From: a virus
Lineage: Duplodnaviria; Caudoviricetes
Length of the DNA stretch: 64,000 nucleotides
Strand: one strand, 5' to 3'
IMG/VR virus record: IMGVR_UViG_3300027672_000010
Coordinates: 1 to 64,000 of that record
A model generated the notes under the pieces. The model saw nothing but the letters and a program-made list of their open reading frames with translations. It did not search any database and was not told the origin of the DNA. The position numbers and the translations under genes were made by a program. The stretch's first letter is position 1. Each line of letters begins with the position of its first letter. Below, piece by piece: positions 55,774 to 64,000 of this stretch.

Positions 55774-58700
55774 ATGTCGAATAATAAGACATTACCGTTA
55801 AAGTTAAAAGACAGTGATGGTAATCTCCAACAGATCAGTGCAACGGAGAAGAACTATGTTGCCTACCTTGCAGGACTACAGAACGCGCAAGCGGATAGTA
55901 GTGATGTAGGTCTTCTCACGCTTGCCTCTAGTGGAAACCGAGGAATCGGTTCCACCCTAGACACCTACTACCCAGAACCAGTAGGTACGCATCCTTACGA
56001 CCAAGTTTCGGTAATCAGTAGCACAAAGAACCTGTTCCAGATTAATGGTACGGCAAGCGAAGCAGATAGTGACTTCCGTCTACCCATTGCTCATTTCGGG
56101 GCGCACGTTTACGAACAACCTGCTTCGAACTTCAATGCCTTTAGTGATGAGATCAATGCTCGTATTGTTCTATCGGACTATCCGGGATCTTTAAAGTTAT
56201 CTCCAACTGCTCCTAGTTCTGACTATAGCATACTAGTACCTTCTGTTCTGTTAGACAAACGTGCTGATTCCGCAGGTAATGCGATTGTCATTAACGATTA
56301 CTCTATCTGGCGTAGAGATACAATGACTGCTCCTAGTGCTATCCTTGATAGTAAAGGCGGCATATCAAGTCTTGCAGGTATTAAGAGATCCAATGGAGAC
56401 TCTGGTACATTCCAAGGTATACAGAAATTAACTGACAGGCAGATCCAAGTATCTGTTGGTCAACGCGCAAAGACTAGACGTGCTATCAGTGGCAACGTTG
56501 GTTCATACGAACTTCGTACTGCTTCGCAAGGTGCCCCTGCCTCTGGAACTTGGGCATCTAAGGGTACCGCTACAAACACTATTCGACTGGTCAATGAAAT
56601 TGCGTACACAAGAACCAGTACTCGATCACGAGGTTCAGCATATGCAAGAACTCGTGTAGGTAACTATACAAGAAATTCTACTCGTAATGACCCACAGAAC
56701 TTTGCAGGTAATTATGGAACTACCTATGTAGGTAACTATACAAGAACATTTGCAGGTAATTATGCAGGTGACTTCACTGGTAATTATGCTCGTGACTTCG
56801 TTGGTAACTATCAGCGTGGATTTACTGGTGACTATACTGGTAATTACACTGGTGACTATACTCGTAACTTTACACGAAACCGCGCATCTACATTTAACCG
56901 CACTAGGGCGAGTAATTACGCAGGTAATTATACAGGCAACTATGCCAGAAACTTTGAACGTACTCGCAACTCAAACTATATTCTTAGTCGTGTGTCAACC
57001 TATCAACGTGGGTTCGCAGGTAACTATACTCGTATAATAGCAGACCAATACGCAGGTAACTTCGTAGGTAACTATGCTCGTACTGGTATTGTTTCTAGAA
57101 CAAGTGCTTACTCACGAACAAGAATTCAGAATAGAGTATCAAACTACTCTCGTGCTTTCTTAGGTAACTACTCAAGAGAATATCTGCGCACATCAACAGC
57201 AACAAGTACTACTGACTTTACTGGTGAATATTCTAGACAGTACCTCCGAACTCGTGTGTCTAACTATTCTCGTAACTTTGGTGGTAACTATTCAAGAGCA
57301 TATACTCGCGCATTCATTGGTAACTATGCCAGAACATTTGCAGGTAACTTTGTTGGTAACTATGTGGGAGGTGCCACTACTTATGGTACTCAAACTGCCT
57401 ATGGGAAAACTCGTATACAGAACAGGATAGTAACTTACATAGGTAACTATACACAGATTCGTACATCTCTCTATACAGGTAACTTTACGAGAGGCACTTA
57501 TTTTACAGGAAACTATATTGGAACTAATTGGCCAACAAGTGAAGTAAATCGATATGTCGGTAACTACACTCAGGGATTTACTCGCATATATGTTGCGAAT
57601 GCACAAAACTTCCAAGGTAACTACACAGGTGCGCAAATCTTTTATGGTGGGTTCTCAGGTGACTTTACTGATTATAGGTATGGTGGTTTCTACACTGGTG
57701 TAGAAAGTACCGTAACATTCACCGGTGACTTTACGAGAACTAGGGTAGCACTAGGAGCGTTTACTAGAGTATCTAATGTCGGTGATGGAAATTATCTTAG
57801 AAATAGTGGCGTTGGATACACTAGAACCAGAACATCTACTATAATCTCAGTAAGGGAAAGAGCAAGTACGAATATTGGTTATGCCAGACTTGGCCCCGCG
57901 AAAGGCGGCAGTCCGCTATACTATATTGGTGCAGGTTTCTATACAGGTAACTACACAGGCCTCCAAAACTTTACTGGCAACTTCCTTAGATTGTTTGTGG
58001 GCAACTACGTCCGTACCTTCAATAGATCTTCTAGTCGTCAGTTCAGTCGTCTAATATTGGGGTCAAGGTACTCAACCTTTACTGGCAACTATGTTGGTAA
58101 CTATGCTCGTGCCTTTACTAGAACTTCTACACGAAATAGAGACAGCACTTACATTAGAACTCGAACCTCAAGTTACACAAGAAACTTTGAACGTACTCGT
58201 GTATCAAACTATACTCGCGACTTCGCAGGTAACTTCTCAAGAAACTTCAGTAGAATACGCGTTAGTTCTTACATAGGTAATTTCATTGGTAACTATTCTA
58301 GAATCTTTGTGGGTGACTATAGTAGAAACTATGCGAGAACATTCGTAGGAAATTACACTGGTAACTATCAGAGAACGTTTATTGGTAACTACACAAGAGA
58401 TTATAACAGAACTTCTACGCGAACAAGTATCGTTAACAGAACCTCTGCATATAATAGAACTCGTGTATCAAACTATGCTCGTACCTTTGTAGGAGACTAC
58501 ACAAGAAACTTCGGTGGTAACTACGCAAGAAACTTTACTGCTGATTATACTAGAATAAGAGCATCATCTTTTGCTAGGACTAGAACTTCTAACTTTACTA
58601 GAAATCGTGGTTCAACATATACAGGTGTATACTCTGCTGTTTATGTAGGCATATATAGTAGAGCATATAGTCGTACCCGAACAAGTAACTACACTAGAAA

Positions 58701-58941
58701 CTCTACTAGAGATTCGACCAGAAACCGTGATTCGGCATATGCAAGAACTCGTGGTTCTACTTTTACTAGGTCAAGAACAAGTGCGTATACTGGTGACTTC
58801 ACTGGAGATTACACAAGAAACTTCGAGGGTAACTACTCACGGAACTTTGCAGGTAATTATGTTGGTAACTATGTTGGGCAGACTATCGGTAATAGTATAT
58901 TCAACGTGGAGACTTATACTTTATATGTAAGAACTGCATAG
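55774..58941 (+). CDS. Self-complementary repeat filament protein A (1055 aa)
   Basis: About 275-aa N-domain, then tetrapeptide repeats whose N- and C-arms (56608-57363, 58117-58872) mirror each other. Confidence 0.9.
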   Translation: MSNNKTLPLKLKDSDGNLQQISATEKNYVAYLAGLQNAQADSSDVGLLTLASSGNRGIGSTLDTYYPEPVGTHPYDQVSVISSTKNLFQINGTASEADSDFRLPIAHFGAHVYEQPASNFNAFSDEINARIVLSDYPGSLKLSPTAPSSDYSILVPSVLLDKRADSAGNAIVINDYSIWRRDTMTAPSAILDSKGGISSLAGIKRSNGDSGTFQGIQKLTDRQIQVSVGQRAKTRRAISGNVGSYELRTASQGAPASGTWASKGTATNTIRLVNEIAYTRTSTRSRGSAYARTRVGNYTRNSTRNDPQNFAGNYGTTYVGNYTRTFAGNYAGDFTGNYARDFVGNYQRGFTGDYTGNYTGDYTRNFTRNRASTFNRTRASNYAGNYTGNYARNFERTRNSNYILSRVSTYQRGFAGNYTRIIADQYAGNFVGNYARTGIVSRTSAYSRTRIQNRVSNYSRAFLGNYSREYLRTSTATSTTDFTGEYSRQYLRTRVSNYSRNFGGNYSRAYTRAFIGNYARTFAGNFVGNYVGGATTYGTQTAYGKTRIQNRIVTYIGNYTQIRTSLYTGNFTRGTYFTGNYIGTNWPTSEVNRYVGNYTQGFTRIYVANAQNFQGNYTGAQIFYGGFSGDFTDYRYGGFYTGVESTVTFTGDFTRTRVALGAFTRVSNVGDGNYLRNSGVGYTRTRTSTIISVRERASTNIGYARLGPAKGGSPLYYIGAGFYTGNYTGLQNFTGNFLRLFVGNYVRTFNRSSSRQFSRLILGSRYSTFTGNYVGNYARAFTRTSTRNRDSTYIRTRTSSYTRNFERTRVSNYTRDFAGNFSRNFSRIRVSSYIGNFIGNYSRIFVGDYSRNYARTFVGNYTGNYQRTFIGNYTRDYNRTSTRTSIVNRTSAYNRTRVSNYARTFVGDYTRNFGGNYARNFTADYTRIRASSFARTRTSNFTRNRGSTYTGVYSAVYVGIYSRAYSRTRTSNYTRNSTRDSTRNRDSAYARTRGSTFTRSRTSAYTGDFTGDYTRNFEGNYSRNFAGNYVGNYVGQTIGNSIFNVETYTLYVRTA

Positions 58942-58989: not shown

Positions 58990-61900
58990 GTGGCAAAGTC
59001 GAACATACCGCTAAAGGCAGAAGGAACAAACGCTGATCTGAAGGAGTTAACTCCTACGGAAGAGCATTACCTCGCCTATCAAGCAGGACTACAATTAGCG
59101 GCAGGTACCACAAGCGCAGGTACTCTACATAAGACTTCGGGTACCACTATCGGTACGTTCGTTGATACTTACTTCAATGAGGCAGACGGCACACACCCTG
59201 CCTCTGCCATAACTTCTGGTAGTACATCTACTCCCCTAAAGCAAATACAAGGTACTGCTAACTACACTGGTGCGAACTATCGCAGACCAGTAGGGTATCT
59301 GAACAGTGGTGCCGAAGGTCTATATGAATTTCCTGACTCTGATATGTCTACTCTTACGACTAGACTTAATGCTCGTATTGCTCTATCAGATTATCCCGGA
59401 ACATATAAACTAGGAACCTCTGCTCCGTCAAGTGACTATAGTGCCTTACTGTCAAACGTATACACCGATACATTGGGTAACGGAACAAGCACAGTATACA
59501 ACATCTACAAACGAAATACAATGACTGCCCCCTCAACTATCAGACCTATGGGTTTGGTTGGTTCAGATTCGGCAGGGTCGTTTAGTGGTATTCGTGAACT
59601 GAATGATAACGAGATCAAGCATACGTTTGGTCAACACGCCAAGACAGAACGTGCAGTAGTAGGTAACATTGGTTCTTATCAGTTGAGATCTGCTACCCAA
59701 GGTGTTCCTTCTGCTTCTGGTACATGGGCGGCAAAGGGTACTGCTACTAATACAAAGAGAACAACTTCGGAAGTTGCGTACACAAGAACTCGCGCATCCG
59801 CATATACTCGTAGTCGTGGTTCTGTTTATGCAAGAACTCGTACTTCGGCATACACAAGAAATTCCCTTCAGACCTTTACTGGTACTTACGCAGGTAACTT
59901 TGTAGGTAACTACACTCGCGCCTTTGCCGGTAACTATTCAAGAGACTTTGCAGGAAACTACGTTGGAGACTTCATTGGTAACTATCAACGTACTCGTGTG
60001 TCGCAATACACAACTAATTTCACAGACGTATTTACTAGAAACTTTGTAGGCAACTATCAACGTATTCGAGTATCAAACTATACTCGTGACCGTATTACTG
60101 TATTTACTGGTAACTTCATAGGAAACTATGTTCGTACTCGTATCTCTGCCTATGCTAGAACAAGTACTCGAACTAGAAACAGCACCTACATTAGAACTCG
60201 AACCTCTGCATACACGACTGTCTTCGCAGGTAACTATATTGGAGACTTCGTAGGAAACTACTCACGAACTCGTGTGTCTGGTTACTCTGGTGCTTACACT
60301 AGAATAAGAAACTCTGCCTATAACAGAACTCGTACTTCAACATATACGCGTGACCGTGTTACTAACTTTACTGGTGATTTCACTGGTAACTATTCTCGTA
60401 ACCGTGTGTCGGCATATACTAGAATCTCAACACGAACTAGAGTATCCGCATATACTCGCTCTAGAATCTCAACATATACTCGTGATAGATTACAAACATT
60501 TACTGGGGATTTCGTAGGTAACTATGGACGTACTCGCACCTCTGCTTATATCAGAACTCGTGCATCTAACTATGCAGGAAACTATACTGGGAACTATACT
60601 CGTACTCGTATCTCTGCTTACACGCGTGACCGTGTTACTAACTTTACTGGTGATTTCATTGGTAATTACTCACGAACTCGTAGTTCAGCATATATCCGTG
60701 ATAGACTAGTAACCTTTACTGGTGACTATGTTGGTAACTATAGCAGAACATTTGTTGGTAACTATTCCAGAACATTTGTTGGTAACTATGCTAGGGCATT
60801 CGCAGGGAATTACGTTGGTAATTATGCGAGGATCTCAACAAGAACTCGTACATCTACTTACAATAGAACATCAACAAGAGATTCTTTAGTAACATATACT
60901 CGCGATAATGTTGTTGGTTATACAGGTAATTTCGGTGGTAACTATTCCAGAAACTTTATTGGTAACTATTCCAGAACATTCGCAGGTGAATATGTTGGTA
61001 ACTATGCTCGTGCGTTCGCAGGAGAGTACATAGGTAACTATTCACGAACTTTCGTAGGAGACTACATTGGTAACTTCATAGGAAACTATGCTCGTGGATT
61101 CGCAGGTGAATATGTTGGTAACTATGCTCGTGGATTCGTGGGCGAATATGCTCGTACCAGAAACTCTACATACAATCGAAATAGTACTAGAATCTCTACG
61201 CGTATTCTTAACTATACCAGACTTCGAATTGCTATCAGTACTCGCATCCTAGACTATCAGCGTACATCCACAAGAACTAGCACACCTACCGAAACGTACA
61301 CACGAATTGGTTTCTATGCAGGTAACTTTGTAGGTAACTATACGCGTATCAGTATAAACACTGGTACCTATATTCGTATCAGAACTGCGACAGGAACGTA
61401 CACAAGAAATAGAACTGCGATAGGAACATACACAAGACTTCGAATTGCCATTAGCACAAACACTGGAACGTACACACGAAACCGTATTGGATCGTTCCTT
61501 GGTAACTATACTAGACTTCGAATTGCCATCAGTACAAACACTGGTACTTACATCCGTATCCGTACTGCCGCGTATCTTGGTAACTATACTCGTATATTAT
61601 ACTACGCAGGTAACTTCGCAGGTAACTACACTCGTACTCTGTATTATACTGGTAACTATACTCGTAATCTTTCTTACATTGGTAACTATACTGGTAACTA
61701 CACGAGAAACTTAGCATACCTTGGTAACTATACTCGTAATCTTTCTTACATTGGTAACTATACTGGTAACTATACTCGTACTCTGTATTATACTGGTAAC
61801 TATACTCGTACTCTGTATTACGCAGGTAACTTTGTTGGTAACTTCTCAGGGCAGTATACTAGAACATCGACTCGTACTTCTACTCGCAATGTTGCCTATA

Positions 61901-64000
61901 CCCGACAGGGTGGAAAGGGCGGTAACGTGACTCTATATTACATTGGTAGTGGTTATTACGCAGGTAACTTCGCAGGTAACTACACTCGTACTAGTACGCG
62001 GACTAGTACGCGGGCCCGTGCCGCGACTGGTACTTACATTAGAATTCGTACTGCGACTGGCACATACATTCGTATACGACTAACCAACCGTATTGCTACT
62101 GGCACATACACACGAAACCGTATTGCTACTGGCACATACATTCGTATACGACTAACCAACCGTATTGCTACTGGTACTTACATTAGAATTCGTACTGCGA
62201 CTGGCACATACATTCGTACCTCTACAAGAACCAGTACTCCTATAGGAACTTATACTAGAAACCGTATTGGTTCGTACACAGGTAACTATCAACGTACTCT
62301 GTATTATACTGGTAACTATCTTGGTAACTATACGCGTACTAGTGCGCCCTCATACATTGGTAACTATCAACGTACTCTGTATTATACTGGTAACTATCTT
62401 GGTAACTACACGAGAATCTTAGCATACCTTGGTAACTATACGCGTACTCTATACTATACTGGTAACTATCAGCGTACCTTATATTATACTGGTGATTACA
62501 CTCGTACCTCTACTCGTACCTCTACTCGTATACTTGGGTACACTAGAATCGGTTCATACGCAGGAGACTTTGTAGGTAACTATACTCGTATTGGTTTCTA
62601 TACTGGTAACTATACTGGTGACTACACGAGAGTAGGATACTATACTGGTGACTTCACTGGCAACTATGCTCGTGCTTTTATTGGTAACTATTCACGAACT
62701 CGTATATCTACATATAATAGAACATCCACACGGAATCGTATCTCGACTTATATTAGAACTCGTGCTACTAACTTTACTCGTAACCGTATCTCCGCATATG
62801 CTAGAACTAGTACGCGTAGTCGTATCTCAGCATACGCTAGGACTAGTACTCGCGCACGAGCATCTACCTACACTAGAGGTAGAGTAAGTGCATACACAAG
62901 AACATCCACACGAGATAGTACTGTAGTTTCTACTTCGGGTGGGGGTGCAAGATACTCAGATCAATCTAACTTGTTGTGGCAAAACTTCCCTGAGTGGACA
63001 GTTGGTACTGGATCCGCAACTAACTACGGACAGAATGGTGACGGTAACTCTCGTCTTGTAGTATCAGATTCCCCAAAAGGAAGTGATATCGTTTGGCAGA
63101 CACTAAACAACGATACAGCATCTAACGCAGATGGTGGTTGGAATACGTCTTCATTTGCAGTTGACCATACTAAGAAATATCGCTTCTCCGTTTGGATGAG
63201 AAGACCAGTAATTGGTAATGGATATGGATACTTAGGTATTGGTGGAGCAGTTCTTAACAGAGACAATGGTGCCGCCAATAGTAACCATTACTTCTGGTAT
63301 TCAAACTCATTCTTTAATTCTCAAAATGCAAACGAATGGTTCTTGATTGTAGGTCACGTCTGGCCAACTGGTTCTGGTGCAGGTGCGATAGATTCTGCTT
63401 CTGGTATATATAACGTTGCAGGTGAGAAGGTCGCAAACATTATTCGTGATGCGATATGGAATAATAACACAACAACTTACCATCGTTCATACTTGTACTA
63501 TTCAACTGATACCGCCACAAACCAACAGTTCTGGGAACCTCGTGTAGATGATATGACTCATTCACTTGTTCCAACTGTTGCTAATATGATTGCACAGTCA
63601 GGTTCATACACGCGTACATTCGCAGGTAACTTTGTTGGTAACTACTCTCGTGGGTTTGCAGGTAACTATACTGGCGAATATTTAAGAACCTCGACTCGTA
63701 CTCGTAACAGTTCTTATATCCGTAACCGCGTATCAACCTACACTAGAAACCGTGTGTCTGCGTATGCTCGTACTCGTATCACAGATTATGTTGCGAACTA
63801 TATTGGTAATTATGCTCGTAACTTTGTGGGAGAGTATACGCGTAACAGTATACAGGTATTCGCAGGTAACTTTGTTGGTAACTACTCTCGCGCATTTGCA
63901 GGAGAATACACAAGGATCTCTACGCGAACTCGTGTAAGTAACTTCGTAGGTAACTATAGCAGAAACTTCGCAGGAGACTATTCTCGTACTCGTGTTACTG
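58990..64000 (+). CDS. Self-complementary repeat filament protein B, >1670 aa, 3' partial (absent from ORF track)
   Basis: Frame 1 open from GTG 58990 to window end in my translation; N-domain paralogous to protein A (PLK...YxAYxAGLQ, GTHP, NARIxLSDYPG, GSYxLR, GTWxxKGTATNT). Confidence 0.92.
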   Translation, partial: MAKSNIPLKAEGTNADLKELTPTEEHYLAYQAGLQLAAGTTSAGTLHKTSGTTIGTFVDTYFNEADGTHPASAITSGSTSTPLKQIQGTANYTGANYRRPVGYLNSGAEGLYEFPDSDMSTLTTRLNARIALSDYPGTYKLGTSAPSSDYSALLSNVYTDTLGNGTSTVYNIYKRNTMTAPSTIRPMGLVGSDSAGSFSGIRELNDNEIKHTFGQHAKTERAVVGNIGSYQLRSATQGVPSASGTWAAKGTATNTKRTTSEVAYTRTRASAYTRSRGSVYARTRTSAYTRNSLQTFTGTYAGNFVGNYTRAFAGNYSRDFAGNYVGDFIGNYQRTRVSQYTTNFTDVFTRNFVGNYQRIRVSNYTRDRITVFTGNFIGNYVRTRISAYARTSTRTRNSTYIRTRTSAYTTVFAGNYIGDFVGNYSRTRVSGYSGAYTRIRNSAYNRTRTSTYTRDRVTNFTGDFTGNYSRNRVSAYTRISTRTRVSAYTRSRISTYTRDRLQTFTGDFVGNYGRTRTSAYIRTRASNYAGNYTGNYTRTRISAYTRDRVTNFTGDFIGNYSRTRSSAYIRDRLVTFTGDYVGNYSRTFVGNYSRTFVGNYARAFAGNYVGNYARISTRTRTSTYNRTSTRDSLVTYTRDNVVGYTGNFGGNYSRNFIGNYSRTFAGEYVGNYARAFAGEYIGNYSRTFVGDYIGNFIGNYARGFAGEYVGNYARGFVGEYARTRNSTYNRNSTRISTRILNYTRLRIAISTRILDYQRTSTRTSTPTETYTRIGFYAGNFVGNYTRISINTGTYIRIRTATGTYTRNRTAIGTYTRLRIAISTNTGTYTRNRIGSFLGNYTRLRIAISTNTGTYIRIRTAAYLGNYTRILYYAGNFAGNYTRTLYYTGNYTRNLSYIGNYTGNYTRNLAYLGNYTRNLSYIGNYTGNYTRTLYYTGNYTRTLYYAGNFVGNFSGQYTRTSTRTSTRNVAYTRQGGKGGNVTLYYIGSGYYAGNFAGNYTRTSTRTSTRARAATGTYIRIRTATGTYIRIRLTNRIATGTYTRNRIATGTYIRIRLTNRIATGTYIRIRTATGTYIRTSTRTSTPIGTYTRNRIGSYTGNYQRTLYYTGNYLGNYTRTSAPSYIGNYQRTLYYTGNYLGNYTRILAYLGNYTRTLYYTGNYQRTLYYTGDYTRTSTRTSTRILGYTRIGSYAGDFVGNYTRIGFYTGNYTGDYTRVGYYTGDFTGNYARAFIGNYSRTRISTYNRTSTRNRISTYIRTRATNFTRNRISAYARTSTRSRISAYARTSTRARASTYTRGRVSAYTRTSTRDSTVVSTSGGGARYSDQSNLLWQNFPEWTVGTGSATNYGQNGDGNSRLVVSDSPKGSDIVWQTLNNDTASNADGGWNTSSFAVDHTKKYRFSVWMRRPVIGNGYGYLGIGGAVLNRDNGAANSNHYFWYSNSFFNSQNANEWFLIVGHVWPTGSGAGAIDSASGIYNVAGEKVANIIRDAIWNNNTTTYHRSYLYYSTDTATNQQFWEPRVDDMTHSLVPTVANMIAQSGSYTRTFAGNFVGNYSRGFAGNYTGEYLRTSTRTRNSSYIRNRVSTYTRNRVSAYARTRITDYVANYIGNYARNFVGEYTRNSIQVFAGNFVGNYSRAFAGEYTRISTRTRVSNFVGNYSRNFAGDYSRTRVT
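62935..63600 (+). other. Globular carbohydrate-binding-like domain inserted in protein B
   Basis: Non-repetitive, Trp-rich, about 220 aa: NLL...W, DGGWN, YRFSVW, WFLIVGH, HRSYLYY, FWEPRVD. Confidence 0.6.

Follow-up and report, generated by a model that had tools for sequence, protein, structure and literature searches.

A jelly-roll resembling carbohydrate-binding modules interrupts one arm of a self-complementary phage fibre without shifting its register

We analyzed a 64,000-nucleotide (nt) stretch of viral DNA, here called the window, which comprises the first 64 kb of IMG/VR record IMGVR_UViG_3300027672_000010 (G000; full record 92,722 nt) and ends within the gene for a long, repetitive fibre protein, protein A. 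The repeat region of this protein consists of an outgoing (left) and a returning (right) arm, whose four-residue units are complementary when the arms are read in opposite directions. In the returning arm only, 222 residues intervene, after which the complementarity resumes in an unshifted register; these residues are predicted to fold as a β-jelly-roll resembling carbohydrate-binding modules (CBMs). An initial annotation, made from the letters of the window, had described a globular domain looped out of one strand in this manner. The observation proved to be real and exact, and our analysis supports a CBM-like module bulged from one strand of a self-paired shaft as the best reading of the sequence. 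The parts of protein A lie in the window as follows, with B denoting a neighbouring paralogue:

58990..64000, + strand: fibre gene A, an open reading frame (ORF) of 1934 residues that reaches record position 64794, 794 nt past the window
58990..59775, + strand: N-terminal globular domain, residues 1–262, common to paralogue B and all family members
59782..61920, + strand: outgoing (left) arm, residues 265–977, unbroken four-residue units in the unit table
60886..60921, + strand: left units LVTY-TRDN-VVGY, residues 633–644, atypical and hydrophobic, facing the insertion point
61906..61926, + strand: turn QGGKGGN, residues 973–979, containing the register-derived centre at 977.5
61921..62931, + strand: distal part of the returning (right) arm, residues 978–1314, which pairs with residues 641–977
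62932..63597, + strand: looped-out insert, residues 1315–1536, a TSGGG linker followed by a predicted CBM4/22-like β-jelly-roll
63598..64000, + strand: proximal part of the returning arm, residues 1537–1670 in the window and on to residue 1912, which pairs with residues 265–640 in an unshifted register

The repeat region was written as four-residue units, with residue i paired with residue K − i. Units were assigned to four classes, G (xGx(Y/F)), R (xRx(R/S)), F (xRx(Y/F)) and S (x(S/T)x(Y/F)). Complementary combinations are xGx(Y/F) with xRx(R/S) and xSxY with xRxF, and the pairing is antiparallel, with i + j summing to 1955 ahead of the insert and to 2177 beyond it. The six unit pairs quoted in the initial annotation (TGNF/TRDS, VVGY/TVVS, TRDN/SGSY, LVTY/TRTF, TRDS/AGNF and NRTS/VGNY) are all present as units 82–87, and because K is 1955 and then 2177 across them, the looped-out stretch corresponds to residues 1315–1536. 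The annotation had placed the insert at 62935–63600, which is indeed an in-frame, stop-free run of 222 residues (SGGGARYS...MIAQS); the register, however, puts it one codon upstream, at 62932–63597.

A register scan found 73 complementary units among the 94 that follow the insert when 222 residues were looped out. Of the 539 registers in which 60 or more units overlap, the best alternative reached 35 of 92, and the average over other in-phase registers was 21% complementary units. In 100,000 shuffles of the 94 right-arm units, the mean was 24.1 (standard deviation 3.9) and the maximum 43, placing the observed 73 at z = 12.5. Immediately ahead of the insert, i + j = 1955 makes 22 of 25 units complementary, as opposed to at most 12 at any other value. 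Chance is excluded as the source of the register across the insert. A gapped antiparallel alignment that allowed gaps in either arm, run with one parameter set, left the outgoing arm ungapped at the junction and opened one gap there in the returning arm, 222 residues long; from this point it ran to the base over 380 residues, with complementarity at 73 units. In the central third of A it also took a meaningless 100/100 detour. The claims that about 220 residues intervene in the right arm only and that the register is kept thus hold, and a loss of register after the insert, looked for by this computational alignment, was not seen.

Over the whole of A with residues 1315–1536 excised, 113 of 178 unit pairs are complementary (82 G with R, 31 S with F). 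The remaining pairs are either unclassified on both sides (31 of 178, mostly in the central third) or other combinations (34 of 178). The four classes read only part of the central third, where units run longer (window 61300–62600, residues ~770–1200), as in ..ATGTYIRIR.. facing ..LYYTGNYTR... Past the window (from 63994–64000 on; L003 9000–9795), 61 further units cover residues 1669–1912, starting with VTDS, VGNF, IGNY, NRAF, AGNY and SRNF and ending with AGNF SRNF AGNY SRNF AGNY and a 22-residue tail. They agree with what the left arm alone predicts; among the first eleven, the sole departure is S instead of F/Y in the first unit. A palindrome at the DNA level was considered and rejected: Watson–Crick complementarity is 28.4% at the protein register versus 25.8 ± 4.4% over 2074 registers.

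The arms (residues 265–1314 and 1537–1912; 1426 residues) lack His, Cys, Met and Trp altogether, have just one Lys, and are rich in Thr (16.5%), Arg (14.2%), Tyr (12.1%) and Gly (10.6%). QGGKGGN is the sole Gly-Lys-rich break in the repeat region. The insert is non-repetitive and Trp-rich, as first noted, with 10 Trp in 222 residues versus one in the other 1712. Preceding the arms, the N-terminal domain, which presumably forms the virion-attachment end, has no match in Pfam, PHROGs or NCBIfam.

The insert itself has no Pfam family at E ≤ 0.1 and no PHROGs or NCBIfam family. An AlphaFold2 (AF2) model of it, based on a 75-row alignment, reached a predicted local distance difference test score (pLDDT) of 92.6 and a predicted template modelling score (pTM) of 0.90, with disorder only at the first six residues (SGGGAR). 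In a Foldseek search with this model, the top six matches in the PDB were CBM4-2 variants (E 1e-5 to 7e-5), the best being 2y64_A (E 1.1e-5, TM 0.50/0.64). An exhaustive comparison with VIA-align likewise ranked CBM4-2 first (4bj0_A; Z 12.3, root-mean-square deviation 2.8 Å, 150 of 166 residues, model residues 11–207 on chain residues 2–167), followed by a glucosyltransferase C-terminal domain, CBM61, a cyclase, CBM16 and CBM22. VIA-align also matched phage receptor-binding proteins, namely the phi812 baseplate, CBA120 TSP4, Kp7 gp52 and the J-1 Dit CBM2. In the BFVD, the module recurs in a 'tail family protein' of a Vibrio podophage and in tail proteins of uncultured phages (TMq 0.84–0.86), and one Atlas neighbour cluster of the insert is 56% PF02018 CBM_4_9, which we take as a lead only. 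The resemblance to a jelly-roll CBM suggested in the initial annotation is therefore borne out by a confident model and by CBMs leading the matches among solved structures in both searches, and we confidently assign the modelled insert to β-jelly-roll sandwiches of the CBM4/22-like fold class. Sequence-profile matches in the PDB (alignment A1) were discarded, as the best stretch in each of the 45 matched sequences falls at profile positions of at least 270, corresponding not to the module but to the Laminin_G-like domain located after it in the ~440-residue proteins.

Within the module, Trp21, Trp54, Trp69, Trp87 and Trp135 are conserved, Arg83 is invariant, and His141, Tyr186 and Gln197 are nearly so. 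It matches 1454 representative proteins at E ≤ 1e-3 (203 at E ≤ 1e-30) in many architectures. Of the best 150 matches, 74 are proteins of at most 500 residues; in the two of these that were scanned, P0006 and P0009 (~440 residues), the module is N-terminal and is followed by a Laminin_G_3 domain. Fibre repeats flank the module in only four of the best 150 (P0002, P0003, P0111 and P0118).

At the junction, the chain enters the insert through a Ser/Gly linker, ...TVVS-TSGGG, as initially annotated, and in most homologues through T(S/T)GG(G/T). An exit helix, ...VA(N/D)MI(A/T)Q, leads directly into the next unit. The surrounding units (left LVTY-TRDN-VVGY; right TVVS and, across the insert, SGSY-TRTF) are atypical, hydrophobic and conserved on both arms; those on the left are kept as LVTY-TRDR-FQGY in the homologues L007 and L012. 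Residues 9–211 of the insert model align with nearly the whole CBM2 of the 'evolved Dit' of phage J-1 (5ly8_A, Z 9.9), which fits a jelly-roll of this class tolerating insertion. The termini of the folded insert are probably adjacent.

Searching IMG/VR with the N-terminal domain yielded 30 candidate stretches, 27 of which encode a relative (38–98% identity), and a search of a protein collection yielded four proteins. The resulting family set comprises 35 sequences: A, B, a protein of Phage C48C1, P0003, P0152–P0155 and 27 locus ORFs, seven of them cut by contig ends. Its members are marked by the conserved N-terminal domain, paired four-residue units and a C-terminal tail, ...TYTLY(V/Q)R(V/T)(A/S) (in A, B, L004–L030 and C48C1). 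The insert domain is present in 13 of the 35 sequences, representing seven distinct proteins.

In four homologues, L004 (2102 residues), L007 (1790 residues), L012 (1830 residues) and the 5′-truncated L017, the returning arm carries a gap of 230, 221, 233 and 227 residues, respectively, at the same site. No residues are left unpaired in the outgoing arm opposite the insert, and a proximal stem of 376–384 residues follows, in which 71–75 of 93–97 unit pairs are complementary. The register, exact in A, is thus kept across inserts of 221–233 residues in these relatives as well; in all five proteins it is unshifted although the insert lengths vary and are not multiples of four. The spacing between base and insertion site is constant, the partner in the left arm lying near residues 640–650, and the distal arms are equal on both sides (333, 255 and 269 residues in A, L007 and L012). 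Compared to A, the proximal stems of the four homologues differ by 1, 3, 3 and 3 whole-pair indels, in which a unit was gained or lost in both arms at mirrored positions. In L004, L007, L012 and L017, a non-repeat turn or loop occupies the centre calculated from the register adjoining the insert. In L017, this centre (ORF residues ~815–850) has nine consecutive Gly and then a loop rich in Lys and Pro, in place of a GGKGG-type turn.

The initial annotation had also proposed looking for homologues that lack the insert or carry other domains at bulge sites; both exist. L015, L019 and L022 are insert-free and follow a single register from base to tip, as does B over residues 279–530 and 782–1033. 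In the more distant P0003 (1043 residues), registers of 1196 and 1420 flank a 223-residue domain, implying that ~223–224 residues are looped out. P0152–P0155 (1303–1403 residues) have an N-terminal domain of 47% identity and the same C-terminal tail, but use another repeat 'dialect' (xxNY/xxTY; few Gly/Arg), which is unreadable with the four unit classes, and contain a Pro/Gly-rich non-repeat centre of ~400 residues.

Other domains at bulge sites are found in Phage C48C1, the sole deposited genome with this fibre family among 50,697 phage records; in a megablast search of the same records, fibre gene A itself had no match. The C48C1 protein (WJE88074.1; GenBank OQ984149.1; L001 3553–13596) has 3347 residues, is annotated as 'hypothetical protein' and has an N-terminal domain 45% identical to that of A. 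Its outgoing arm is unbroken, and five different globular modules all reside in the returning arm. One of them (residues ~1805–2047) is of the type found in A, with no unpaired residues on the other arm. It is followed by a partial tandem duplication of ~78 residues, made up of the last ~37 residues of the module and ~41 residues of repeat. Four further non-repeat segments of ~154, 159, 175 and 128 residues are entered through ...G-P and exited through G(F/Y)(V/A)GNY; they have no Pfam or PHROGs family and are mutually dissimilar, the best pairwise match having E = 0.012 over 27 residues. The registers demand 927 looped-out residues (3592 − 2665), and the segments total ~315 + 616. The 12-residue period of the local repeats makes the registers between modules 2 and 5 ambiguous, and the alignment there contains an unexplained 132-residue skip in the left arm.

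In the window, the fibre genes follow genes for T4-type baseplate wedge proteins (PHROGs 219, E 1e-125; PHROGs 438, E 8e-61). The gp6-like protein is nearest to that of Phage C48C1 (38% identity), followed by Pelagibacter, Methylophilales and Synechococcus myophages (~33%), and from these genes we label the source virus a marine T4-like myovirus. The baseplate genes are followed by two neighbouring paralogous ORFs, B and then A, which share an N-terminal domain of ~262 residues, a long stretch of four-residue units and the same C-terminal tail:

55774..58941, + strand: paralogue B, 1055 residues, a member of the family of A that lacks the insert; its arms (residues 279–530 and 782–1033) pair at i + j = 1312

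The central ~250 residues of B (window 57364–58116, residues ~531–781) are degenerate. They include a turn-like motif, GPAKGGSPLYY (residues ~706–716), ~50 residues to the C-terminal side of the symmetry centre at 656 given by the outer arms, which suggests that the tip of B may be asymmetric or may bear a side branch on the outgoing side.

On the basis of the insert and its fold class, and of the exact register and their conservation as described above, we suggest that the chain of protein A would start with the 262-residue attachment domain, run out for ~713 residues to the Gly-rich turn and then return antiparallel. The arms would be kept in register by complementarity of small and large side chains, Gly/Tyr units facing Arg units and Ser/Tyr units facing Arg/Phe units. 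As the unit pairs set Gly/Ser against Arg and aromatic residues against Arg/Ser, knob-into-hole and cation-π packing may be involved. A mobile, independently folding CBM-type jelly-roll would have been spliced between two units of the returning arm, at a point separated from the base by ~380 residues and from the tip by ~337. It would enter by the flexible TSGGG linker and rejoin the strand right after the short C-terminal helix, a geometry that would keep the flanking units opposite successive units of the outgoing arm. The module would be presented laterally, roughly midway along the shaft, most likely as a putative lectin for a host surface glycan; should the fibre be a trimer, as other phage fibres are, it would carry three copies. 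We regard this overall explanation, a folded-back shaft with a bulged CBM-type module that is likely a lectin, as probable. Since predictions of the arms gave nothing usable, the physical hairpin pairing of the arms is something we infer from sequence.

Several results weigh against the folded-back shaft or against the CBM assignment. An AF2 monomer prediction of full-length P0003 (89 rows) leaves the arms unmodelled (pLDDT <50 at residues 386–668 and 894–1033) and without secondary structure, and so carries no information on their pairing; the N-terminal domain and the inserted module are confident (blocks 79–98), and the C-terminal tail (residues 1034–1042) forms a strand with a pLDDT of only ~50. 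A complex prediction of left residues 597–684 with right residues 1271–1580 (5-row alignments) gave no answer (score 0.00, mark 0.32) and has no bearing on binding either way. The unit classes were derived from protein A itself, albeit applied equally at all registers scanned, and by these classes 21 of the 94 unit pairs after the insert are non-complementary. In the homologues, two-sided compensatory class switches are few (0, 0, 0 and 2) compared to one-sided, pair-breaking changes (0, 2, 2 and 5), and therefore the evolutionary support comes mainly from the mirrored indels and not from RNA-like substitutions. As to the module, the sequence libraries (Pfam including PF02018 CBM_4_9, PHROGs and NCBIfam) assign it to no CBM family, and lyases and glycanases of the same jelly-roll score little lower than CBMs in VIA-align (Z 9.3–10.3).

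A constant i + j would be equally expected of an antiparallel homo-oligomer, and the P0003 prediction provides no arm model; the arms might thus pair between chains, in antiparallel dimers or higher assemblies, with the module interrupting a strand and neither a hairpin nor a folded-back bulge being formed. However, the symmetry centre given by the distant register coincides in A, L004, L007, L012 and L017 with a tight-turn or Gly-rich motif, all family members share a C-terminal tail that adjoins the end of the conserved N-terminal domain, and known phage fibres are parallel trimers. An out-and-back path also has a precedent in domain D10 of T4 gp37, according to the available part of PMC6957217. 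We consequently consider pairing between chains improbable. One might further argue that the complementarity is a by-product of repeat-array evolution that involves no contact, the module just interrupting a tandem repeat, given that the repeats are simple and biased in composition and that other in-phase registers already reach 21% on average. This explanation appears very hard to reconcile with a unique register (z = 12.5), with DNA lacking reverse-complement symmetry, with arm lengths that change together among homologues (333, 255 and 269 residues on both sides) and by whole-pair indels, and with inserts of 221–233 residues that never shift the register.

The function of the module can be questioned independently of the fold of the shaft. 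Phage fibres often carry depolymerases, and the inserted jelly-roll could be an enzyme, a polysaccharide lyase or glycanase, rather than a lectin. In VIA-align it matches a PL14 alginate lyase (5gmt; Z 10.3, 177 residues aligned), a glucuronan lyase (2zzj; Z 10.1), GH16 (Z 9.3–9.7) and GH131 (Z 9.9) enzymes; its 222 residues exceed the ~165 of a typical CBM4, and it has the invariant Arg83 and the three nearly invariant residues named above. We nevertheless consider an enzyme unlikely, as CBMs top both structure searches, no Pfam lyase or hydrolase matches at E ≤ 0.1 and no catalytic motif was identified in the module. Alternatively, the module might be a structural element with no role in host recognition: it could act as a hinge or knee, form a collar of the trimer, or dock another protein of the virion. 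It sits mid-shaft, 53% of the way out, and T4 long fibres have their knee at mid-shaft; on either arm the junction is flanked by atypical units that are conserved, and a bulge in one strand would naturally provide a flexible point. Yet the module occurs in 1454 representative proteins of unrelated architecture, including P0006 and P0009 with their Laminin_G_3 domains, and in tail proteins of unrelated phages. A ligand-binding cassette therefore fits this spread better than a fibre-specific hinge, and a purely structural role seems rather improbable to us.

If the reading of a folded-back shaft with a bulged, CBM-type lectin is true, the position of each binding module along a very long fibre could be read from sequence alone; with 713 residues per arm fully extended, the shaft would measure up to ~235 nm, an estimate that is an upper bound. 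Besides evolved Dit and Tal, the fibre would represent another route by which phages decorate adhesion devices with CBM-type modules. The module is widespread (1454 representative clusters) yet unnamed in Pfam, PHROGs and NCBIfam, the family may account for how a group of uncultured marine T4-like phages recognizes its hosts, and the fibre is possibly a simple natural scaffold for domain display. More broadly, and tentatively, the family could constitute a natural plug-in scaffold, a self-complementary β ribbon into whose returning strand modules are spliced at unit boundaries with the pairing undisturbed. Phages would then present one to five receptor-binding or enzymatic modules at set heights on one fibre. 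Among proteins, the ribbon would correspond to an RNA stem carrying bulge loops, and its layout could be read, perhaps even designed, from the sequence alone.

Full-text literature searches, evaluated by titles and the starts of abstracts, returned no description of this fibre family or of a domain looped from a fibre strand, and the available part of the RBPseg paper (PMC12143355) contains no occurrence of the terms looked for. New are the fold of the insert, the variable-length inserts without a register shift in five proteins, the insert-free relatives and the five-module homologue. As in the CBM4, CBM22, CBM16 and CBM61 families of CAZy, the model shows a β-sandwich of the same fold, and its residues 11–207 cover a whole CBM4-2 (residues 2–167). 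Unlike CAZy CBMs, the module has only 9–13% identity to them, no PF02018 match and ~55–70 extra residues.

A CBM-type jelly-roll inserted into a structural adhesion protein without disruption of the host fold is also known from the evolved Dit, Tal and MTP of siphophages, where, as far as the available part of PMC7291167 describes, such insertions add glycan binding and the CBMs of evolved Dit sit in loops of its galectin domain. The same part of the source likens BppA-type CBMs to PDB entries 1GUI and 1GU3, calling them carbohydrate-binding modules with the family unnamed; both entries, titled CBM4, also appear in the Foldseek list of the insert. In evolved Dit, the host is a globular galectin or gp27-like baseplate-hub domain, whereas here it would be one strand of a long repeat shaft with a register legible in the sequence, and fibre A has no Pfam or PHROGs Dit match.

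The shaft can be compared to the needle of T4 gp37 (domains D10–D11, PDB 2XGF; ~200 residues), which is held by His-x-His iron sites; according to the available part of PMC6957217, these carry seven irons, and D10 combines residues 811–881 and 1010–1026. Like gp37, A would be part of a T4-type fibre, and its sequence, from which alone it is known, fits a chain that runs out to the tip and back. No sequence similarity between A and gp37 was found, and, unlike the needle, A has arms of ~713 residues each, no His or HxH site in 1426 residues and a Gly/Arg plus Ser/Arg code. Moreover, the globular part of gp37 sits at the turn, whereas the module of A would sit in one strand. A counterpart to this arrangement is C48C1 WJE88074.1, which belongs to the same family and carries the same module in its returning arm with no residues unpaired opposite, and which differs from A in its four additional, mutually unrelated modules and its partial tandem duplication.

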